A stretch of 31,599 bases of DNA from Oligoflexia bacterium (GCA_043732305.1 JAYTHU010000115.1:1-31599); one strand, 5' to 3'. Counted from the stretch's first letter, positions 43 to 30,972 are shown. A program made the numbers and translations. The notes: generated by a model not told the origin, from the sequence alone.

Positions 43-656
43 TTCTTTTGTCCTAACCCTTTAAGATCTGCATCTGTGGGCGCGGAAGCTCTTTGAAGAC
101 CGCGCACGTAATGAATGACGGCCCATCGATCGTCGGGCTCGAGTTGAGAGCCGTAACTGGGCATCAAATTTTGTCCGCGAGTGATAACATTAAAGATGCA
201 ACCATCAGCCCAAGTTTTAACTTTATCACTTAAGAGTGAAGGGGGACGGGGATAGGGAGGTACAACATAGCCTTCGCCGTTTCCTTTGGGTCCATGACAA
301 ACGATGCAATAGGTATTGAACATCTTTTGTCCACGTTCTACCACGTTTTTGGTTCGCAAGAGAGGATTGTGCAATTCTTTGCACGCCTTGTCTGTTTCAG
401 ACGCATCGTAATGATAGGGCTGATAATTTATGGGAACTGTTCCTTCTGGAGGAACGCGAGCCGCAGCACCGTCAGGTGAGTGATGATCTTCTTTTTGTGC
501 TTTGTAGGAAGTGCTTTCATACATGTCAGGGGTCATTTCCCATTCGGGCGTCGACTTGGTGCAACCTACTGCGAATCCAACTAAGAGTAAGCTTAGTAGC
601 GCAATTTGACGCGGTCCTGGACAAAAAGGAAGCTGGTACGTTTTGGCGGATTTCAT
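39..656 (-). CDS. actE: Alternative complex III subunit E, monoheme cytochrome c lipoprotein
   Basis: Lipobox FAVGC, PDMY motif, single CIVCH heme motif, MPSY axial Met; ATGA overlap with actD stop; operon order. Confidence 0.9.
   Translation of the reverse strand: MKSAKTYQLPFCPGPRQIALLSLLLVGFAVGCTKSTPEWEMTPDMYESTSYKAQKEDHHSPDGAAARVPPEGTVPINYQPYHYDASETDKACKELHNPLLRTKNVVERGQKMFNTYCIVCHGPKGNGEGYVVPPYPRPPSLLSDKVKTWADGCIFNVITRGQNLMPSYGSQLEPDDRWAVIHYVRGLQRASAPTDADLKGLGQKK
604..640. repeat. 37-bp dispersed repeat, copy 1 (in frame within the actE N-terminus; terminal GGTACC changed to GGTACG)
   Basis: ATTTGACGCGGTCCTGGACAAAAAGGAAGCTGGTACG; 31/37 identical to copy at 22304-22340. Confidence 0.9.
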
Positions 657-8643: not shown

Positions 8644-8685
8644 TTTTATGACGGGATGAATGCTTGGGTCAAGCTAAGAGAGGCA

Positions 8686-8725
8686 AAATGACGCGGATCT
8701 GGACAGAAAGGTACCTGGTACCTTT
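8686..8725. repeat. 37-bp dispersed repeat, copy 2, abutting the PilZ gene stop codon
   Basis: AAATGACGCGGATCTGGACAGAAAGGTACCTGGTACC, 33/37 identical to copy 4; perfect palindrome AAAGGTACC-T-GGTACCTTT at 8707-8725. Confidence 0.92.
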
Positions 8726-9188
8726 ATTTTTCGTCTTTGCTGGGGAGGAGATCAACGAGGGATTCGCGCCAGTAATCGGGAGCGTCATCGCGGAAGTCGA
8801 CGGCAATTAAAAACTCGCCGCGTCCCAAGGACTTAGTGCGTTTGATTGAACCTTCAATGTAGGTGTCCATCACTTCGATTGTGAAGCCAACAGCGATGTC
8901 GTGCAAAAGTGTCATGGTGAGTGTCGAACGAAGCGACATGGCCACAATTTCTTCACGTTTGACTTGAAGTAAAAGGCCAGTGGCACTGACATCTAAAACT
9001 TCTCCTCGAGAGAAAAGCACTTCACCAGTTTTGAGATCTTTGATGTTGAGAACAAAAATCTCGGCGACTTCTTTTCTAAACGAGTGCTCCCGCTCTTGCT
9101 TCGGTTCTTGTTTCGATTCTGGCAATGTTTTGCGAGAAGGAGCGGGTGTTGCTATTTTTTCTGTGTCAGACGTTTTGCTTTTTTTCAT
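8724..9188 (-). CDS. PilZ-domain protein
   Basis: DVSATG (DxSxxG) motif, Arg pair REHSFR, beta-rich body ending in AVDF and a helix. Confidence 0.7.
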   Translation of the reverse strand: MKKSKTSDTEKIATPAPSRKTLPESKQEPKQEREHSFRKEVAEIFVLNIKDLKTGEVLFSRGEVLDVSATGLLLQVKREEIVAMSLRSTLTMTLLHDIAVGFTIEVMDTYIEGSIKRTKSLGRGEFLIAVDFRDDAPDYWRESLVDLLPSKDEK

Positions 9189-9236: not shown

Positions 9237-11432
9237 TTATTTACTTTTTTTAGGCTTCTGGATGCGCATTGCATTGGCGATCCAGAACGTTATGGCGCCA
9301 AGAATTCCGAACGCGATGCAAGATACACCATCACTTTGAGCCATATTAGGGAATCTGGCACTCAAGTCGATCGCTTGCGCCCAATTTTCTTTGATCGACA
9401 ATAAAGCCACAAAAATTCCCGCAATGGATCCACCGGCAATCAAGCCGCTGGAAAAGAGTATTCCTGGCGAGGTGTCATCATCGGTTTGCCCGCGCTGCGT
9501 CTTTGCTTTTTTATCTTTTCGACGAGTGATGTATTCGGTGGCTAAACGGAGCATGCCTCCGGCAAAAATTGGCGAGCTTGCTGAAATAGGAAGGTACACG
9601 CCAACAGCAAAGGGAAGCGAAGCGATTCCACAAAGCTCAAGAACGACTGCGATGAAAACGCCTAAGAGCACGAGACTCCAGGGGAGTTTTTGGGTGAGAA
9701 TGCCATCGATGATCAAAGACATGAGGCGCGCTTTTGGAGCTTCATATTTAGGAACAGGGGTTCCGTCATCACGAGTTTTAAGCGCACCATTGATTCCGGG
9801 ATCGACCAAATAGACAATGTGACCAGAGTTATCTACAAGATATTTTCCCGCAGGAATTTTTTCTTTTGGCTCTGAAAGATGCAAGACATAATAAGTCCCT
9901 GGATCTTTTTTTGCCTCAGGGCCAGCGACGTGTTCCATTTTTGTTAGAGCCGCAACATCAAAAGTTGTCTCAGGAAAACTTCGTTTAGCGTAAATGGTGC
10001 TGGCGTCATTCAATAGCACAAGGGTGTAACCAATAACCAATGCACTTGTGAGAGCTCCCACTAACACTGCAATCTGTTGATACATTGGAGTTGCGCCGAT
10101 GAGATACCCAGTTTTTAAATCTTGAGATGTCGTGCCACCGTTAGATGCGGCAATGCAAACGATTGCGGCAATGCTAAGCGCTGTCACGCGGTAATCTATT
10201 CCAACCCAACCAAGCATGACAAAAATCAAACATGTAAGTAGTAGTGTGGCCACAGTCATTCCTGAGATTGGATTTGAAGAGGATCCAATCTCGCCAGTCA
10301 ATCGGGATGAAACTGTCACAAATAAAAATCCAAACAACACAATGAGCATGGCACCGAGTAAATTCATTTTCAAAGTAGGTGCAGCCCAAATCGCTAGAAT
10401 TAAAAACACACAACCCAGGAGAACGTACTTCATGGGGATATCCCGGTCCGTTCTTAAAATCTTTGAAGCAGATTTTTTTCCGCGCGAGTTCTTGAGTTGA
10501 CCTAGGCCGGCCATGAAAGAGCCAGCGATCGAAGGCAAACTTCGGACTAAACTGATAATTCCGCCCGCAGCGACAGCGCCGGCACCAATGTAGAGAACGT
10601 AATTTCTCCAGATTTCGTGAATTGTCATTTGAGAAATTAAAATCGTCGCGGGAAATAAAGGGGCGGTTAGTCCATGTCCAAAAAGTGTGATTGCAGGAAT
10701 TAAAACCAAGTTAGAAAGAACTCCTCCTCCCATCATGATTAAGGAAATTTTTGGACCAATGATATAGCCGACGCCTAAGAGCTCGGGGGAAACTTCGCAT
10801 GAGATAGATCCGCCCTTGTACCAGTTGAATGCTTTTTCCGGGACGTCATTCCAAAGTTTCAATCCTACGTTTAGCGCTTTGTAAATCAAGCCTAAGAAAA
10901 ATCCTGAGAACACGGTGAGGGCACTGGTGCCGCCTTTTTCTCCAACTATTAATACTTCGGCGCAAGCCGTTCCCTCGGGATAAGTGAGTTCTTCATGACC
11001 GTTGACTATCAGCGCGCGTCTCAGTGGAATCATCATGAGAACTCCAAGGAGTCCTCCTAGAACTGCCACGAGCATGATGCGGGAGATTTCCATGTTGTAG
11101 CCCATGATCAAAAGGGCGGGCATGGTGACGGCGACACCGAAGGCGATCGACTCGCCGGCTGAACCGGTCGTCTGGACAATATTGTTTTCTAAAATTGTTG
11201 CTTGTCTCAATCCAAATACTTTGGAGAGTCCCCGAAAAATGGTGATGGATAAAACGGCGACTGGGATCGAGGCGCTGACCGTCATTCCTACTTTGAGAGC
11301 CAAGTAAAGTGACGAGGCTCCAAAAACTATTCCTAAAAGGGCTCCAATAATTATCGGTAAGATCGTCAGTTCGGGAATTCTTTTTTCCGGAGCAATAAAC
11401 GGCTTAAAAGTTTCTGATGATGCAGTTTTCAT
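9237..11432 (-). CDS. OPT-family oligopeptide transporter
   Basis: YLALKVGMTVSASIP, LENNIVQT, YPEGTACAEVL, NPISGM, QDLKTGYL motifs; many TMs. Confidence 0.93.
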   Translation of the reverse strand: MKTASSETFKPFIAPEKRIPELTILPIIIGALLGIVFGASSLYLALKVGMTVSASIPVAVLSITIFRGLSKVFGLRQATILENNIVQTTGSAGESIAFGVAVTMPALLIMGYNMEISRIMLVAVLGGLLGVLMMIPLRRALIVNGHEELTYPEGTACAEVLIVGEKGGTSALTVFSGFFLGLIYKALNVGLKLWNDVPEKAFNWYKGGSISCEVSPELLGVGYIIGPKISLIMMGGGVLSNLVLIPAITLFGHGLTAPLFPATILISQMTIHEIWRNYVLYIGAGAVAAGGIISLVRSLPSIAGSFMAGLGQLKNSRGKKSASKILRTDRDIPMKYVLLGCVFLILAIWAAPTLKMNLLGAMLIVLFGFLFVTVSSRLTGEIGSSSNPISGMTVATLLLTCLIFVMLGWVGIDYRVTALSIAAIVCIAASNGGTTSQDLKTGYLIGATPMYQQIAVLVGALTSALVIGYTLVLLNDASTIYAKRSFPETTFDVAALTKMEHVAGPEAKKDPGTYYVLHLSEPKEKIPAGKYLVDNSGHIVYLVDPGINGALKTRDDGTPVPKYEAPKARLMSLIIDGILTQKLPWSLVLLGVFIAVVLELCGIASLPFAVGVYLPISASSPIFAGGMLRLATEYITRRKDKKAKTQRGQTDDDTSPGILFSSGLIAGGSIAGIFVALLSIKENWAQAIDLSARFPNMAQSDGVSCIAFGILGAITFWIANAMRIQKPKKSK

Positions 11433-13531: not shown

Positions 13532-15112
13532 TTAAGCGGCGTCCTTTTTAAACGAGATTTGAGATCGCAGAAACTTGATTTTTGCACAGTAAGCATACAA
13601 GAGGGGGTAGTCGGCTCTGCGGATAAACAAGTTCTCTAAGTCATAACTATTCAGACGTTGCAAAGTCTTTGTTGAGAGAACGGTCCCTTTTTTGAGATAC
13701 CTTAAATATTTGTCGTTTTTAGGAAGCCGCATGTAAATGTCGAATAGGATTGCTTGGCCACCTTCGAAATATTTAAGTGCTACTTTGCTGAAATCCTCGC
13801 CATCGATGTCGGAAAATTTTGGAAGGCTATCAACGGGAAGAAATGCAAAAATAATTTCTTCTTTGCCGATTTGAGATTTGACTAAAAAATCAGCCTGACT
13901 TTCGGCCCAGATTTCAAATTGTATTGGTTCTGTCCTTAATTCCAAGACACCGCAGATATCAGAGAGATCTTCTCCGCTTTTGCCCATTTCAATTTTGAGT
14001 TGATCGTAGACCTTTTTTGCAAGCTCATAGTCGGGAAGATTACTCGAAGTTCCCGAAAGTAAGTAACCTGAATAACGTGAACTCTTGATCACGGATGCGG
14101 TCACTTGGTTAAGGACCCTGATCTGTTCAGACTTTTCCTGGGTTTCTGTCACCAACACATTATCAATTGCTTTTATTAAACATTGTTCCAGTATTGAGAT
14201 CACCGTCACAGTTTTCTCAGCAGTTTCGTCTTTCTCAATCGTTGTTTCGCTCTCAGTTTCAAAAGCTTCCAACAAGGCGATTTCTAAGCTGTTGTCATCC
14301 ACTGTGAGCTTGCTTGAAACTTCTGAAACTCCCGAGACCATTTCTTCGGGCGCTTCTTGAGTGACTTGAAACTTAACATCTGACCCCACTTTTTGAAACA
14401 TGATCAATCCTGAATCGTCCACTTCTCTGTCTGTCATGATCAAATGAGATTTTCCTTGGCGCGTGCCTCTTTGCACTTCGTTAAATAGTACGGATGGGTT
14501 TCCGCCTTTGAAGTAAAAAAATCTTTCTTTGTTTTCGATCGTCGCTGATCCCATCCAAATTTGGTCTTCTTCTAACTGAGCGTCAACTTTTACTATCCAC
14601 TGTGTTTCTTTGGGAACTTCGTTGGAGGAAATTTTCTTCTTATCAATGATATGCAGTTTACTAGAATCTGTATTGTCCCAATTGATATTTACCTTTTTGG
14701 AAGGTGCCTTTCTTTTGTCGTTTGCACGATCTGACTGTGAATTTTTATTTCTCAAAAGACCTTGAATCCGCATGTGAATATTCACCCCACTCAACGGTGG
14801 GAGCACAGTGTTCGGAATTCCACTCGCCATTAGCGATGTTGTCGTGCGGGAGTTATTTTCTTCCGCAAAGATAATGCAAATGGAGTCAGTTTTTGATTTA
14901 AAGATTTTATGAACTTTTTTAATATTGACGCCTTTGAGATTCCAACTAAGGATTAAGACGTCAGGTTTGAAAGTAGAAATAGCGTTGACAGATTCCATGA
15001 GATTATGAATAAATTTTATTTCATATTCATGCTTTTTGAGATAGTCAAAAGTGCTCATGACAAGCTCATTATTGTTCATTAGAATCAAAACTTTTGCGAT
15101 TTCGGCCGACAC
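13532..15112 (-). CDS. Multidomain protein with N-terminal degenerate receiver domain
   Basis: Receiver-like pattern KVLIL...KPDVLILSWNL; acidic linker; GTG start with GAGGAGG SD. Confidence 0.7.
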   Translation of the reverse strand: MSAEIAKVLILMNNNELVMSTFDYLKKHEYEIKFIHNLMESVNAISTFKPDVLILSWNLKGVNIKKVHKIFKSKTDSICIIFAEENNSRTTTSLMASGIPNTVLPPLSGVNIHMRIQGLLRNKNSQSDRANDKRKAPSKKVNINWDNTDSSKLHIIDKKKISSNEVPKETQWIVKVDAQLEEDQIWMGSATIENKERFFYFKGGNPSVLFNEVQRGTRQGKSHLIMTDREVDDSGLIMFQKVGSDVKFQVTQEAPEEMVSGVSEVSSKLTVDDNSLEIALLEAFETESETTIEKDETAEKTVTVISILEQCLIKAIDNVLVTETQEKSEQIRVLNQVTASVIKSSRYSGYLLSGTSSNLPDYELAKKVYDQLKIEMGKSGEDLSDICGVLELRTEPIQFEIWAESQADFLVKSQIGKEEIIFAFLPVDSLPKFSDIDGEDFSKVALKYFEGGQAILFDIYMRLPKNDKYLRYLKKGTVLSTKTLQRLNSYDLENLFIRRADYPLLYAYCAKIKFLRSQISFKKDAA

Positions 15113-19698: not shown

Positions 19699-21057
19699 TT
19701 ATGGTCTACGTTTTTGAGCAAAAATTATTAGCTTCGATGTCAAAACGCCATTGGCGCGAAGACCCGAAGCCTTAAGTAAAACATCCGCAGTTTTCATCGG
19801 TGTGAGGATTCGAATTTCTTTCAGGTAGGGACTGTAAATTAAAAATGAAATCAATCTAACGACTGCGGTGGCAACAAACAAAGTTCGAAACGCAAAGTCA
19901 CTATCCTTGGAAAACGCCACGTAAATTGCGCCAATCACGCCCCCAGAAAATCCGGTTGCGGTGTTGAGAATATTGTAATAGCTCATCACCATCGTTCGTT
20001 CTTCAGGCACTGTGGCGTCCAGCAAAAATGTGAAAGTTGCTAATTCGTACCCTGCCCAGGCGATGCCCGTAAAACATTGCGTCACGAAAAGTATTTTTAA
20101 ATTCGATGAAAATGCCCACGGCCAAGTGGTGAGACCGATCATAAAGCTTGTCGCTACGACAATTCTTTTTGCGCCAAGTTTGTCAATGACTTCGCCCCAA
20201 AACCCTGACGCTAGAGATTTGAAAAGTAAAACCGAACTGATCATCACCGTATAAGCCCAATAATTTAATTTCAAATGAGAAAGCAAGTGGGGAGTGTAAA
20301 AAGCGGCAGCTAAGTAAACTCCAAAATTTACTGTAACCATCGATAAAATCAAATGCCCATAATTTCTAGATGGAAGTTCCCAACAAAATTGAAAAAAGGA
20401 CCGCTTGTTTTTATTCTCTTCATCACGAGAGGGAAGGTCGAGTTTTTTTGTCAACGCTTTGAAGCTTAGAAGTCTAAAACCGAAGCCAAAAAGTAAAATA
20501 ATTGCAAATCCCAATAATTCCACTTTAAATTTTTTACAGTAATAGAGAATAGCTCCGCCGGCGATCATGCTCAGAAAAGTTCCGACCATCACGATCCTGT
20601 TTCGTTTGCCAAAATACTTTCCGCGGGAATTCGTCGCCACGAGATCACCCATCCAACTATTCCAGACGGGGCTAATGGTATTGTTAAAAGTAAAATAGAG
20701 AGTGACAAAAAAGATGTAAAATTCAATGCGGAGAAACTGAAATTGATGGGTCAGAAAAATCGGCACCAAAGAAATGGCTTGAAGGAAGACTCCGCCGGCG
20801 ACCAACCTTTTCCGGGATGGAAATAACCGCGAAAGTCTCGAGGTAAAAAACTGGGTCTGTCCTGCCAAAAACAATGGAAGGCAAGCCAGCACCCCCATCT
20901 GAAAGTAACTGGCTCCCAAAAATATCGCAAACGCGGGGAAATAAGTTTCTGCAAATCCCACCATCAGGCTATAGAAAAAACCATCCCATATGGAGTAGGC
21001 TAAGCTTTTGACTTTCTCTAATCGGATACTCGGAGCTTTATTTTGATGAACAGCCAA
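19699..21057 (-). CDS. MFS transporter
   Basis: About 12 TMs, WNSWMGDLV..RGKYFG, WGEVIDKLGAKR; TTG start with GAGAGGGA SD. Confidence 0.88.
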   Translation of the reverse strand: MAVHQNKAPSIRLEKVKSLAYSIWDGFFYSLMVGFAETYFPAFAIFLGASYFQMGVLACLPLFLAGQTQFFTSRLSRLFPSRKRLVAGGVFLQAISLVPIFLTHQFQFLRIEFYIFFVTLYFTFNNTISPVWNSWMGDLVATNSRGKYFGKRNRIVMVGTFLSMIAGGAILYYCKKFKVELLGFAIILLFGFGFRLLSFKALTKKLDLPSRDEENKNKRSFFQFCWELPSRNYGHLILSMVTVNFGVYLAAAFYTPHLLSHLKLNYWAYTVMISSVLLFKSLASGFWGEVIDKLGAKRIVVATSFMIGLTTWPWAFSSNLKILFVTQCFTGIAWAGYELATFTFLLDATVPEERTMVMSYYNILNTATGFSGGVIGAIYVAFSKDSDFAFRTLFVATAVVRLISFLIYSPYLKEIRILTPMKTADVLLKASGLRANGVLTSKLIIFAQKRRP

Positions 21058-22125
21058 GATTCAGTCCCTCTCTACAGCGGAAAACCTATCGCCTTTTCAC
21101 CTCGACCGGTGAAAATGAAACGGTCCACTTACGACTTTATTGAATCATCTTTGGCTGGGATTCTCAAACAACTTGAAGATTTCACGACTCAAATTTTGGG
21201 ATCAAATCTCGGACCCAGCTTCAAGCGGGACAAGGATTTGCTCACGAGCCTCGGAGTGCCAACCAATCTTGATGGCACCCCCACGCCATTGGGCTTGCAT
21301 ATTCCATTTGCTCGATTTGATTTTAGCCTCGGTGACGATGGGAAAATTCAGATCATGGAGCTCAACACGGATGGAACAAGTTCGTGGAATGTGGTCGAGT
21401 GGGTGGCAGAACAATCTAAAATTCCCAATGACGCTAATCCAAATTTCAATTTGAGTTTACGTTTGCTTGCGGGCTTGCGGGCTCACAAACCAGAGGCGCT
21501 GAAAGTATTTCTGATGGATTTTCCTACTGTTCTGACCAAGTGGGAGCAGGATGATCTCATGCGAAGGTGGTCCAGGGTTTTGCCGGCACAAAGATGTGAA
21601 CCAAATCAAAGAAGCTGGGATCAGGGCGGACTGATTTATCGGCGGACGGTGAGTTGGAATTTGCGAGAGAATTCAAAGGCCGCGGAGCCATTTCTAAAAG
21701 ATTGGTTGGAGAAAAAAATCACGGTTGTTGGTGGTTGGTCGAGTGACATTGGCATGAGCAAAGCCTGGCCTGCGATTTTAAAAAATCCTCTGACAATTGA
21801 AACAGTTTTGGTTGATGATCAAAATCGACGCCTTTTGAAAGAGCAAAAAGATCTGTGGGTTTTAAAAAGGCATTTCAGTCACTCAGGCCAAGGTGTCACA
21901 TGTGGCATAGACGTGAGTGAGGCCGAATGGGCCATGAAAATTCGCGAAAACGGCAAATTCATCGCTCAAAAATTTATTGTCCTCCCAGAGTTTGAGGGCG
22001 AACGCTTGGAGTGGGGCATGTACTTCATCAACGGCAAAGCTTCCGGACTCCTGGCCCGCTCTGGCCACAAAGGCGCCATCACCGACGACTCCGAAGATCT
22101 CGTCCGCCCCGTCCTCCTCTATTAG
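21043..22125 (+). CDS. ATP-grasp ligase, glutathionylspermidine-synthase-like or circularly permuted type
   Basis: ARFDF, IMELNTDG, VLKRHFSHSGQGV, IAQKFI motifs; no amidase domain; start 21043 (TTG) or 21046 (ATG). Confidence 0.7.
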   Translation: MMNSQDSVPLYSGKPIAFSPRPVKMKRSTYDFIESSLAGILKQLEDFTTQILGSNLGPSFKRDKDLLTSLGVPTNLDGTPTPLGLHIPFARFDFSLGDDGKIQIMELNTDGTSSWNVVEWVAEQSKIPNDANPNFNLSLRLLAGLRAHKPEALKVFLMDFPTVLTKWEQDDLMRRWSRVLPAQRCEPNQRSWDQGGLIYRRTVSWNLRENSKAAEPFLKDWLEKKITVVGGWSSDIGMSKAWPAILKNPLTIETVLVDDQNRRLLKEQKDLWVLKRHFSHSGQGVTCGIDVSEAEWAMKIRENGKFIAQKFIVLPEFEGERLEWGMYFINGKASGLLARSGHKGAITDDSEDLVRPVLLY

Positions 22126-22161
22126 GTACCAGCTTCCTTTTTGTCCAACCTTGCGTCATTT
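22125..22161. repeat. 37-bp dispersed repeat, copy 3 (inverted), overlapping the ATP-grasp gene TAG
   Basis: GGTACCAGCTTCCTTTTTGTCCAACCTTGCGTCATTT; reverse complement 33/37 identical to copy 4. Confidence 0.93.
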
Positions 22162-22303
22162 ATAGTAATTTATTTAATGGACGCAAACTGATTGCAAGAC
22201 ACCTGATTTCAAAATGACCGAGTCGTGCAGGCTCGACGGGAAAATTTAAATTTTGCTCTAAATGTCGAGCGCATTGCAGGTGCTATAGTAGACCCTTGGT
22301 TAA

Positions 22304-22340
22304 AAATGACGCAGATCTGGACAAAAAGGAAGCTGGTACC
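22304..22340. repeat. 37-bp dispersed repeat, copy 4, abutting the glutaredoxin TAG
   Basis: AAATGACGCAGATCTGGACAAAAAGGAAGCTGGTACC. Confidence 0.93.
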
Positions 22341-22580
22341 CTAGAGGGCGTGGTCGCGTAGCCATTCGACGATGTCGTCGCTTTCGAGTTTGGGTTTGCC
22401 GTCGATCACCAGGCAAGGGACTTGATCGTCATCATTCATTTTCATAAGGCGGGCGTGTGCGCCCTTGTCTTTGCGAATGTCATGAAAGGTGATTTTGGAT
22501 TTGAGGTTTTTTAGATCGATGAAATCTCTGACTTTATGACAAAAAGGGCAGGCTTCGAAATGATACAGTTCTAGTTTCAT
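22341..22580 (-). CDS. Glutaredoxin-like protein
   Basis: CPFC active site, QVPCL, ESDDI; AAGGAG SD. Confidence 0.9.
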   Translation of the reverse strand: MKLELYHFEACPFCHKVRDFIDLKNLKSKITFHDIRKDKGAHARLMKMNDDDQVPCLVIDGKPKLESDDIVEWLRDHAL

Positions 22581-28896: not shown

Positions 28897-29287
28897 GAAT
28901 ACATCGGTCTGAAATCACAATGAGTCCTGCGGCGCGAGCTTTTTCTTCTGCGACAGGATTGAAAACTCCTTCTTGGAGCCATAAAACTTTTGCTCCGACG
29001 GCAATCGCTTCATCGACAATAGCGGGAACTGCATCGCTTTTACGAAACACATCCACGATTTCAACTGGCTTTGAAAGTTCACTTAGAGAGCCGACCGATG
29101 GAACTCCTAGTATGCTGACGTTATCCGGTCTGACTGGCGTGATTTCATAACCATTTGCCTGCATGTATGCAGAAACACCAAAGCTTGGCCTTGTGGGGTC
29201 CGGGCTAAGTCCAACCACCGCAATTTTTTTATATTGAAGGGCTTTTTTAATCAAAGTGTCTAAATCTGAGGTCTTTTTAATTTCCAT
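28871..29287 (-). CDS. CoA-binding protein (YccU-like)
   Basis: IAVVGLSPDPTRPS, VDVFR, WLQEG, DRC. Confidence 0.92.
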   Translation of the reverse strand: MEIKKTSDLDTLIKKALQYKKIAVVGLSPDPTRPSFGVSAYMQANGYEITPVRPDNVSILGVPSVGSLSELSKPVEIVDVFRKSDAVPAIVDEAIAVGAKVLWLQEGVFNPVAEEKARAAGLIVISDRCILKEHSRLK

Positions 29288-30374
29288 CGTTCATTTCTCC
29301 GCAAATGTTTTTTTGAAAGTAATTTCTTAAATTAGCGCCTTGAAATTTCATCCCCAGGCCGTGCATAAGTTTGACTACGCAAGCTTCCGTAGTCATGTCC
29401 TGGCCACTGATGGCTCCCGCTTTTTCAGCCTGAACCCCGCAATCATATTTTTTCAAATCGACCCGGCCATGAGGACATTGCGAAGATATTATCACCGGTT
29501 TTTTCAATCTTTTAGCTTCCCTGATCATCGCTAGAACTGAATGATCGAAGTCCGGAACGTTTCCCGTCCCGTAGGCTTCAAGTACCATTCCCTGACATGC
29601 TTTTGCTCTCACTGTGCCCATAAGTATTTCTCCGGAAATCCCCGGAAAAATTTTAAAGCAAAACACTTTTTCATTAAATTTACTCTGCCATTTTGAAGGT
29701 GCGCTGTACTTTTTTTGCAACTTTTCGGGCGTGTTTGACTCACCCCCTCTACCAAAAGGAACCTGGTACCTGGGGGCGGTGTATCTTATGTCGACGCCCA
29801 TGGTGGCGAGGTGAGGGGTGTTGAAACTTTGAAAGGCGACGTAATCAGTGGCGGAAAGTTTGGTGGCTTGCATGGCGTTGAGCAATTGATTTCCAAAACA
29901 GAGAGAAACAATCCCCGTACTGCTACATGCCGTTTCAACAGAATTTATTAAGTTCATTGGCGCATCTGACCGCAAATCACCAAGTGGTTTTTGGCTGCCA
30001 GTGAATACCATGGGCTTTGAGAGTCCCGTCATTGCAAATCCAAAAGCTGCCGCCGTGTAAACCATCGTATCGGTTCCATGAGTGATTACAAAACCATCAT
30101 ACTTTTCGTAAACTTTTCCGATTTGTGCCAGCCACTTTTCCCAATTCCTTGGTGTGACATTTGACGAGTCAATATTGTCTCCCAGCATGACATCAATTTC
30201 AGCAAGTTGAGAAAGTTGAGGGACATGTTTCAGTATTTGAAGCGGAGAAAAATGAGTGGCAGGTTTAAGATCTGAATCCCGTCCTTGAATTCGCTTGCCG
30301 TTGTCTGACACCACATTGCCAGAAATCATATTAATGGTTCCACCGGTTTGAAAAATCAAAATTTTCTTTTTCAC
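29277..30374 (-). CDS. ansA: Type I L-asparaginase
   Basis: TGGTI, IDSS, HGTDT, TGSQ, AFQSFN, SQC, DMTTEA motifs; GTG start overlaps recombinase stop. Confidence 0.9.
   Translation of the reverse strand: MKKKILIFQTGGTINMISGNVVSDNGKRIQGRDSDLKPATHFSPLQILKHVPQLSQLAEIDVMLGDNIDSSNVTPRNWEKWLAQIGKVYEKYDGFVITHGTDTMVYTAAAFGFAMTGLSKPMVFTGSQKPLGDLRSDAPMNLINSVETACSSTGIVSLCFGNQLLNAMQATKLSATDYVAFQSFNTPHLATMGVDIRYTAPRYQVPFGRGGESNTPEKLQKKYSAPSKWQSKFNEKVFCFKIFPGISGEILMGTVRAKACQGMVLEAYGTGNVPDFDHSVLAMIREAKRLKKPVIISSQCPHGRVDLKKYDCGVQAEKAGAISGQDMTTEACVVKLMHGLGMKFQGANLRNYFQKNICGEMNDGN
29754..29771. repeat. Partial repeat, copy 5, in frame inside ansA
   Basis: AAAAGGAACCTGGTACC matches the last 17 nt of copy 4 at 16/17; TTTGAC remnant at 29734-29739; encodes RYQVPF. 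Confidence 0.72.
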
Positions 30375-30904
30375 AAAATCAATTTCCTTAATTCATTTTG
30401 AGAGTAAATGTAATCCGCATAAACCATAGTGTTTGTTATATTTCGATGTCCAAGAGCAAGTTGAACCAAGCGCAAATCTTTTGTCTTTTTATAAAGACGG
30501 ATGGCAAAGGTGTGTCTAAGCGCATGGAATTTTTTATGACATGGGCGGTACACAACCCAAATGTCGCGCAACCGATTGTACGTGATATCAAAAATCACTT
30601 CTGTCGGCCGAGTGGCGGCGTAATCTATCAGTCTTTTAAAAAGTGCTGTAGGCAGCGGGATTTCGCGATCGCTCGAGCCCTTCAATCCCTTTATCAAGAG
30701 AGTCTCGTCGAAACTGTTGATATCAGCCTTCCGCATGTTCAGAAGTTCGGTGGCGCGAGCCCCAGTGCGCAAAGCCAGCTCTATGATAAGAACGTTTCGA
30801 GCATCTGAAGCGGCGTACTTTACAAGCAAGGTTTCTAGACCTTCGACCTCGGGGTCGAGCAAATACTTGGTTTTATTTAGAGCATATCTTATTGAAGTCG
30901 CCAT
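30371..30904 (-). CDS. Small tyrosine recombinase (catalytic domain only)
   Basis: TGAR, K, HALRH, LGH, TMVY catalytic set; 177 aa from ATG 30904 (alternative TTG 30916). Confidence 0.9.
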   Translation of the reverse strand: MATSIRYALNKTKYLLDPEVEGLETLLVKYAASDARNVLIIELALRTGARATELLNMRKADINSFDETLLIKGLKGSSDREIPLPTALFKRLIDYAATRPTEVIFDITYNRLRDIWVVYRPCHKKFHALRHTFAIRLYKKTKDLRLVQLALGHRNITNTMVYADYIYSQNELRKLIL

Positions 30905-30972
30905 AGTTGTAATCAACGTTACTAGAATTTCTCATTGCAGCGCCAGGCTTTTTTATGTGACACTTTCGGTAT

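Follow-up and report, generated by a model that had tools for sequence, protein, structure and literature searches.

The window considered here is the whole stretch of 31,599 nucleotides from an Oligoflexia bacterium (GCA_043732305.1, JAYTHU010000115.1:1-31599), i.e. contig C115 of a 2.99-Mb assembly (genome G000), and its main subject is a dispersed repeat of about 38 bp, the terminal inverted repeat (TIR) of a transposase family, together with the C-rich codons lying on its outer side. Two convergent genes are separated there by a non-autonomous element of 216 bp (22125..22340) made of two inverted TIRs and a spacer, without transposase. The left copy (22125..22162, + strand, subtype A) overlaps with its outer-end GGTACC the stop codon of a GSP_synth/ATP-grasp-like gene (21043-22125) and has 33 of 36 bases identical to the arm beside the Y1 gene of contig C179, and its inverted partner (22303..22340, - strand, subtype A) abuts the stop codon of a glutaredoxin/GST_N-like gene (22341-22580). 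No such repeat is present at the orthologous gene ends in four same-family genomes, and the 21043-22125 gene has no match in the phage collection. Both genes are skewed toward the element, as expressed by C3 (or G3), the fraction of codons with C (or G) as third base, and by z, the third-position C of a flank adjusted for amino acids. The skewed outer flank of the ATP-grasp-like gene (21945..22122, + strand) exhibits a C3 of 21/30 (z 6.2) that fades upstream, with an approximate left boundary, and that of the glutaredoxin-like gene (22344..22480, - strand, far boundary approximate) a C3 of 18/30 (z 5.2).

Three further copies occur in the window. A single subtype A copy with a nearly perfectly palindromic core (8685..8722, - strand) borders the 3' end of the open reading frame (ORF) 8724-9188 (- strand), the skewed outer flank of which (8727..8820, - strand) has a C3 of 16/30 (z 4.4); a Pfam search gave no family for this ORF, and the PilZ label proposed for it in a first-pass annotation of the sequence is thus unconfirmed. 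A single subtype B copy (29733..29770, - strand) forms an in-frame insertion of 10-13 residues within the asparaginase gene ansA (29277-30374), missing in three orthologs (a fourth, partial ortholog gave no usable frame), with a C3 of 19/30 (z 5.0) in the skewed outer flank (29772..29861, - strand) and 3/30 on the inner side; being mid-gene and skewed, this copy confirms that the phenomenon is not merely a gene-end effect. A subtype A copy with a CGTACC start (603..640, - strand) lies 12 bases beyond the actD stop, and its flank is unskewed (4/30, z -1.0).

The eight hand counts of C-ending codons from which the first-pass annotation had started proved exact on recount, namely 25/34 at 22021-22122, 3/34 at 21781-21882, 17/26 at 22344-22421, 16/26 at 8727-8804, 17/26 at 29772-29849, 3/27 at 29646-29726, 4/26 at 656-733 and 15/26 at 11100-11177. 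Against the genome-wide baseline C3 of 0.217, binomial p-values are 2e-10 for 22021-22122, 2e-6 for 22344-22421, 1e-5 for 8727-8804 and 2e-6 for 29772-29849, these four flank windows being hand-picked and the genome-wide comparison given below carrying more weight.

The repeat and its partner transposases

The repeat is the TIR of Y1/HUH transposases, in a layout similar to that of the TIRtrons. Profile scans of the genome located 32 copies of subtypes A and B and 20 oriented copies of type C, the core of which is GGTACGCCGTACC, i.e. about 50 dispersed copies arranged as singles, dimers or groups. Seven Y1_Tnp (PF01797) matches above cut-off are found in the genome, and three of these proteins form one clade, each gene lying within its own inverted pair, of type A on C179, type B on C19 and type C on C207; the early guess of an HUH/RAYT-type nuclease was therefore right as to the partner enzyme. 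The HFH and YxxxNP motifs are kept in 6/6 aligned Y1 proteins. The RAYT model NF047646 is the best family for all three proteins (71.0, 76.1 and 53.5 bits for a curated cut-off of 80), the IS200-type TnpA model NF033573 yielding 21-27 bits for a cut-off of 55, and, unlike in IS200/IS605, TIRs are present. In the C179 protein, the sole one scanned against Pfam, Y1_Tnp stands alone, with no C-terminal helix-turn-helix-like (HTH) extension. The GGGGWSAS motif is absent from the arms, which begin with GGTACC or a variant. The combination of 5' GTAG tag and stable hairpin typical of repetitive extragenic palindromic (REP) sequences was not found either, no fold clearly beating shuffled sequences (best z -1.4); subtype A copies fold at about -1 kcal/mol, and the GTAG found inside subtype B is confined to its inner side.

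The element is found across Bdellovibrio-like bacteria. Relatives of the C179 protein occur in 136 out of 301 genomes of the class and, at a looser threshold, in 147 out of 251 of the phylum; flanking inverted repeats accompany 61 of 69 related Y1 loci, with a GGT-type core in 100 of the 122 arms. Dispersed copies were met in three relatives, at 23-86 pattern matches per genome, and exact long-pattern scans of the genome collection returned 0 and 4 matches, one being a Pseudobdellovibrio record from which the label Bdellovibrio-like is partly derived.

Several additional observations concern the repeat and its surroundings. A second clade of four Y1 proteins without GGTACC repeats is present in the genome (C75:47205, C31:10524, C50:14758 and C118:1716; L001, L003, L006 and L007), and the genes ending upstream of those on C75 and C31 are C-rich (18/30 and 13/30). 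Read outward, the repeat gives the in-frame start and first residues of host genes (C124:~1060-1120 and C19:~14230-14290 in G000, L357 in G086), and it often provides or overlaps stop codons. A variant with a GGTGCC core and an inner GCGTTA motif at C10:45277 (- strand), after a C-rich gene end (18/30), is possibly a fourth subtype, and at C9:1961-2080 a copy stops a few bases short of what looks, by eye, like a tRNA gene. In genome G086, the loci L283, L344, L345, L346, L348 and L349 have in common an outer flank rich in G, which resembles a second repeat and is of opposite skew. In genus g14, the mpl-mutS (L106-L165) and oppC-speA (L166-L225) sites hold TIR elements of different subtypes in separate lineages and therefore look like insertion hotspots. 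Directly upstream of ansA, the window encodes a tyrosine recombinase of 181 aa reduced to the catalytic domain (30371-30916, - strand) and falling under the cut-off of every NCBIfam model matched. An invertible switch run by this recombinase was rejected, the repeats pairing with Y1 genes instead (family scans only were made), as was a sigma-70 or sigma-54 promoter function of the repeat, on account of a spacing misfit judged by eye without a scan.

Base skew beside the repeat, its strand and its recurrence

Among the 2827 genes called in this genome by our own ORF script, the 20 that end at a type A or B copy exhibit a C3 of 0.58 in the last 15 codons, then of 0.46, 0.32, 0.34, 0.24 and 0.22 going back from the stop; in the 14 genes ending at a bare palindrome C3 begins at 0.45, the other gene-end classes being at 0.20-0.25. 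The excess fades across about 60 codons, and the reach is about 150-180 bp instead of the roughly 100 bp first proposed. Over 34 sense flanks (31 gene ends and 3 mid-gene), z averages 3.95, the 2544 other ends being at 0.15, i.e. the genome-wide excess on the repeat side that had been predicted, and z exceeds 3 in 74% of the repeat flanks versus 2.1% of other gene ends; three flanks have z below 0 and a further five a z of 1.2-2.1. The flanks of this genome's Y1 units are strongly skewed (z 7.5, 6.7, 6.1 and 4.2 for the four scored). Copies with an intact 13-bp core tend to have a higher flank z (rho 0.41, p 0.017, n=34), and z was not correlated with how closely a copy matches the Y1-flanking arms overall (rho 0.19, p 0.27) or with how complementary the outer arms are. 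The first-pass annotation had held that every intact copy is skewed, which is true in the window (4/4) but fails for the genome as a whole, where a type C copy on C64 has a z of -0.2 despite its intact core and promoter-facing copies show little skew. A broken GGTACC, which it had noted to go without a skewed flank at actD (4/26), does not always abolish the skew, the flank of a C19 copy with CGTACC being skewed (G3 14/30 on the outward strand).

At four-fold degenerate sites of the last 20 codons, the composition is A 0.12, C 0.67, G 0.08 and T 0.13, versus a background of A 0.23, C 0.26, G 0.17 and T 0.35, and two-fold pyrimidine codons end in C at 0.78 versus 0.39. The preference for C over any other single base is about five-fold, with G mildly disfavoured, and is about equal in all neighbouring-base contexts. 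That the skew is C-specific rather than a high-GC patch, as initially claimed, is borne out here by the Lys/Glu/Gln codons, which end in A at 0.84 versus 0.76 in the background over the same 20 codons, but in the relatives' flanks both C and A stand high and G and T low, with A retained and a loss of both G and T (four-fold A 0.22, C 0.51, G 0.09 and T 0.17 versus 0.19, 0.23, 0.22 and 0.36). A general high-GC patch is ruled out by the fall of G3 in the flanks, a general gene-end effect by ends away from repeats, which rise by merely +0.02 to +0.03, and a common tail carried in by the element by the flanks themselves, which bear no relation to one another and code for orthologous protein. Strongly C-rich gene ends do also exist away from any repeat (C148:21111/21295, C20:15475/15574 and C96:11081; z 3.7-6.0), two of them being convergent pairs, and they are candidate scars of lost elements; generally, the C-richness of convergent gene partners is weakly correlated (rho 0.13, n=364).

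Designating as inward the strand that reads flank, GGTACC, element, and as outward its complement, the skew follows the DNA strand and the orientation of the repeat, not the transcript. In five genes with the coding strand running out of the repeat and no normal start between, it is G3 that is higher than in the rest (5/5, four with p<0.002): the C124 and C19 genes that take their first codons from the repeat (14/30 and 14/30 versus 0.16 and 0.21), the gene with a mid-gene type C copy on C19 (14/30 after the repeat versus 0.17), and the G086 coaBC in-frame insertion (17/30 versus 0.23) and aldehyde dehydrogenase gene (11/30 versus 0.29). On the coding strand around the C19 mid-gene copy, C is in excess ahead of the repeat and G behind it, which is what would be expected of a near-perfect palindrome working in both directions. 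The one-sidedness first described stands for types A and B, and the effect is strand-specific and repeat-dependent. Outside coding sequence, the 70 bases before mutS, a gene transcribed away from the element, hold G29-30/C6-7 in three of the carriers, G24/C7 in another and G16/C19 in G018, the closest non-carrier; three further carriers with the copy 37-48 bases upstream are mildly skewed only, and the non-carrier G046 has G29/C7.

In relatives, for which genes were derived from cruder ORF rules with some rows miscalled, and for which cross-genome p-values are overstated, related genomes not being independent, the same tendency recurs. Genes pointing at a Y1-flanking repeat have a C3 over the last 30 codons of 0.41 versus 0.25 in the rest, 35/38 being higher (29 loci, two without a convincing repeat); another such set gives 0.47 versus 0.23 (28/28 higher), and other classes of the phylum 0.42 versus 0.25 (13/17 higher). 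For dispersed copies of four pattern sets, C3 is higher in 41/48, from 115 flanks examined of which 37 were unclassifiable, 4 of the 48 also being in the Y1-flanking sets. As a control, 251 gene ends of relatives away from repeats have a C3 of 0.273 versus 0.246. Near E. coli REPs, located in 250 kb by REP motifs, 19 adjacent gene ends show no C excess (four-fold C 0.22 versus 0.30); the K-12 ends in question (L238, L279-L282) look slightly G-rich and C-poor (four-fold G 0.48 versus 0.40, n=19 genes).

Comparison of orthologs with and without the repeat indicates that the repeat is needed for the skew and that the element precedes it. For each gene compared in genus g14, 30 of the 44 genomes were used. 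The last 30 codons of mpl hold 21, 21, 21, 14 and 19 C-ending codons in the five carriers (mean 19.2, two TIR types) and 5-16 in the 25 non-carriers (mean 10.0), four out of five carriers (19-21) lying above all non-carriers; in G280, which has a different TIR type, the count is 19 versus 12 and 12 in its nearest relatives. Smaller gaps are seen for the oppC-like (12.7 versus 9.6) and speA-like (11.4 versus 8.2) genes. Repeat-free orthologs of the window genes have 4-6/27 C for ansA, 4-9/26 for the glutaredoxin (four orthologs) and 1-8/26 for the GSP_synth-like gene (four orthologs), and lack the C-rich codons, so that neither of the two results named beforehand as refuting, i.e. no genome-wide excess or equally C-rich orthologs, occurred. 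Some non-carriers are nevertheless high (16/30 in G018, and 16/30 in G227 and G245); judging from their position among carriers, G018, G014, G138 and G227 may have lost the element.

Nature of the process behind the skew

According to published accounts, TnpA-REP cuts single strands near the repeat, keeps the 5' end and frees a 3'-OH able to prime synthesis (PMC8266576; PMC3333891). The best explanation at hand, to which we would give about an even chance, is that the skew arises by nick-primed exposure or resynthesis of one strand by the transposase at the TIR. The enzyme would nick the outward-running strand (element, GGTACC, flank) at the outer end of the repeat, leaving a 3'-OH that points into the flank, and the old outward strand would be displaced and recopied repeatedly. 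Either the displaced strand would then be deaminated (A to G, C to T) or dG/dT would be misinserted in the recopied one, making the outward strand G/T-rich and its partner C/A-rich, fading with distance. Each of the two would yield the observed sign, side and gradient, as a slow directional push acting mainly at synonymous and spacer sites. Between carriers and their closest non-carriers, flank differences are biased for T/C (98:53, p 3e-4) and G/A (68:39, p 0.007), with A/C at 24:19 and G/C at 15:9, versus 478:482 and 235:283 for T/C and G/A in the rest of the genes, and both biases match A-to-G and C-to-T changes on the outward strand, these differences being pairwise, with pairs that share partners, not polarised on a tree and given a direction from which genomes carry the repeat, which tempers their weight.

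Dedicated mutators were searched for in the genome, as the first-pass annotation had envisaged a linked deaminase or reverse transcriptase (RT), and none is bracketed by or linked to the repeat. A diversity-generating retroelement (DGR) or retron was discarded, the two RTs, one with a group II maturase domain, being on contigs without a repeat copy; 0/34 flanks have a full-length second copy that could be a DGR template repeat, the six partial matches spanning 28-97 bp with the longest at 73% identity. A dedicated deaminase was also discarded, the nearest of four PF00383 matches lying 4.6 kb from a copy and none being bracketed by repeats. The single Y-family polymerase lies 80 kb from the nearest copy, and the 5'-GX error context of DinB leaves no sign in the flank bias.

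Besides the limits of the pairwise comparison, a series of results weighs against nick-primed rewriting by the transposase. At four-fold sites of this genome C displaces A too (0.23 to 0.12), which deamination alone does not explain and which points more to dG misinsertion. Gene starts of relatives pointing away from the repeat show no G3 rise (0.29 versus 0.28, n=10; 7 more flat), and non-coding flanks are weakly skewed (C257:G218, p 0.08), this genome being near baseline past 20 nt; another set, with the four mutS loci in and ribosome-binding sites kept, gives C331:G204. The skew could be masked there because promoters and gene starts are constrained, or transcription toward the repeat could strengthen it. 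Dispersed symmetric palindromes are weak or flat in G024 (0.27 versus 0.21, n=9), G038 (0.33 versus 0.26, n=5) and G035 (0.13 versus 0.12, n=3), despite the Y1 genes that these genomes do hold. In the OPT gene of the window (11060-11190, - strand), a patch is C-rich without any repeat (codons 90-119: C19 G7 A2 T2); G is retained there and A lost, there is no indel relative to four orthologs, and C stands at 23/42 versus 4, 12, 8 and 18 of 42. The patch may have been left by an element since lost, or be GC-rich for an unrelated reason.

The rate of change adds to these objections. Over six close carrier pairs, synonymous differences in the flanks are barely raised (36/162, 0.22, versus 0.205 in the rest; for 14 non-carrier pairs 56/355, 0.158, versus 0.188), amino-acid divergence in the flanks of carrier pairs is not raised, and the reads of two runs, likely the source samples, show no variant at the flanks. 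For mpl, the three close carriers show 0 favoured-state changes, a raised-rate two-state model expecting 2-4.5 and a selection or protection model 0.2-0.9, in a weak test that counts A as unfavoured and ignores recombination at the locus; modelled in this way, the result would count weakly against hypermutation and leave selection or biased fixation open. What is seen resembles a slow bias in one direction and not a means of generating diversity, and most likely it results incidentally from the activity of the element without being adaptive. The proposal of a site-directed mutagenesis system made in the first-pass annotation is partly supported, as a repeat-dependent directional bias, but was overstated in the DGR sense, the substitution rate between close relatives not being clearly raised.

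Other processes could leave a similar footprint. If RNA polymerase stalled at a protein-bound TIR, transcription-coupled repair (Mfd/UvrABC) could refill the template strand with a dG/dT bias and no transposase nick would be needed; the skew is indeed most consistent in genes transcribed toward the repeat (41/48; 28/28) and weak at promoters and gene starts facing it, and the template of such genes is the outward strand, so that the sign fits, yet the same DNA-strand skew lies downstream in five genes transcribed out of the repeat and at the mutS promoter region, where antisense transcription must be assumed in each case, and such a roadblock is deemed unlikely. A little less credit still goes to selection for C-rich, G-poor RNA, i.e. 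Rho loading sites that would end transcription upstream of the element, for which speak the presence of rho in the genome, the five-fold, context-free preference for C with G mildly disfavoured, the low divergence at the strongest flank (mpl) and the slight rise in C at repeat-free gene ends (0.23-0.25 versus 0.21 here; 0.273 versus 0.246 in the 251 ends of relatives). Such a composition would however have to follow the transcript, and the mRNA is G-rich where running out of the repeat (5/5 genes reversed, C-rich and G-poor only in genes pointing at it); moreover, the skew is also found ahead of insertions that lie in frame within a gene (ansA, z 5.0; C10, z 3.5), and ending transcription at these would cut short a gene that is intact. 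Four-fold sites also lose T more than A (pooled odds ratio 1.55, p 4e-5), something non-equilibrium selection could give likewise.

The orientation dependence and the absence of raised divergence would also suit selection or biased repair acting on DNA in favour of a G-rich outward strand (e.g. through R-loops or strand exchange beside the TIR), thereby altering fixation instead of mutation; no benefit is known, and GC-biased conversion would raise G along with C on one strand, yet G falls, which makes this improbable. That the element inserts or survives beside sequence already C-rich is very unlikely: the C-rich ends without a repeat (the C148 and C20 convergent pairs, C96) and the high non-carriers G018, G227, G245 and G046 are in its favour, but four out of five mpl carriers exceed all 25 non-carriers, G280 has 19 where its nearest relatives have 12 and 12, three window genes have orthologs at baseline, and the high non-carriers, found mostly among carrier lineages, may have lost the element. 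Hardest of all to credit is the purging from the flank of a short motif cut by the enzyme. TnpA-REP cuts CT or CA (PMC8266576), and the outward strand does lose C and A, but the bias is even across neighbouring bases, and codon shuffling finds TA alone depleted (z -4.0), as at random gene ends (z -4.6).

Returning to nick-primed rewriting by the transposase, a wider and more tentative proposition, possible though on balance doubted, is that a phylum-wide domesticated Y1 family would be a natural, repeat-targeted and strand-specific mutator, its TIR priming the rewriting of about 150 bp of host DNA toward G. Were it true, codon usage, promoters and, slowly, proteins would be reshaped, skewed scars would outlast the element, and site-directed mutagenesis would operate without RNA template and without deaminase. 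The skew is in any case a measurable genomic footprint that offers a means to spot lost elements and, if nick-primed rewriting is right, it would give the strand, side and reach of activity in a biochemically unstudied branch and rank copies by activity. In conserved host genes (mpl, mutS, coaBC, ansA), the end of a mobile element alters both promoters and synonymous positions, and estimates of codon bias and selection made there would be distorted.

Comparison with known systems

In diversity-generating retroelements, too, a cis element at the 3' end of a gene marks about 100 bp for strand-defined base changes; the system of the window differs in having no template repeat or linked RT, in not being adenine-specific, and in that proteins are conserved with convergence to C, not diversity. 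EvolvR, a synthetic system that associates a nickase with an error-prone Pol I, generates by a nick and one-strand resynthesis a one-sided mutation window that fades with distance. It works as nick-primed rewriting would, except that it is engineered, RNA-guided and high-rate, as opposed to the natural, slow and inferred process considered here. The sign is the same as in replication strand skew and in the asymmetry of the mitochondrial heavy strand, where G and T abound on the strand that is exposed or leading-like and C and A on the other, the skew reported here being limited to about 150 bp at the end of a mobile element, with C exceeding A at four-fold sites.

The closest systems are themselves Y1-based. 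As described by Di Nocera 2013 (PMC3733652), TIRtrons have, like here, a Y1 HUH gene (TIRYT) between TIRs that are also dispersed as singles or dimers, several TIR-specific enzymes per genome and the class 2 Y---NP signature; unlike here, they have a GGGGWSAS motif, common to some TIRs and not all, and a C-terminal HTH, which Pfam did not reveal in the one protein scanned here. Most TIRYTs correspond to subclass 2.1 (PMC6006769), i.e. group 1 RAYT (PMC5581495), and the element of the window likely belongs with this Quentin subclass 2.1 or Bertels group 1. REP, BIME and REPIN sequences with TnpA-REP (PMC3333891; PMC8266576) share with it short dispersed repeats at stop codons and a non-duplicating Y1 enzyme, with strand-specific cutting near the repeat and a 3'-OH proposed to prime synthesis. 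The REP groups (group 2 in E. coli, group 3 in Stenotrophomonas and Marinomonas) differ by a 5' GTAG with a hairpin and by hundreds of copies versus about 50 here, and the E. coli REPs differ further by the 19 adjacent gene ends without C excess.

The accessible parts of the TIRtron/TIRYT papers (PMC3733652; PMC6006769; PMC5581495) describe no effect on flanking host sequence, and searches of the open-access literature, outside which most subscription papers lie, found nothing on a base skew specific to one strand next to REPs, REPINs or TIRs, nor on these repeats in Bdellovibrio. A REPIN preprint (10.1101/2021.07.10.451892) cites one study for local mutation-rate effects, which the accessible text of PMC8049555 does not name; the same preprint regards the host benefit as unclear, and PMC3333891 calls for an in vivo system for RAYT/TIRYT-type enzymes. 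All in all, the element is another member of the described TIRtron layout, and the skew of its flanks is the new part.

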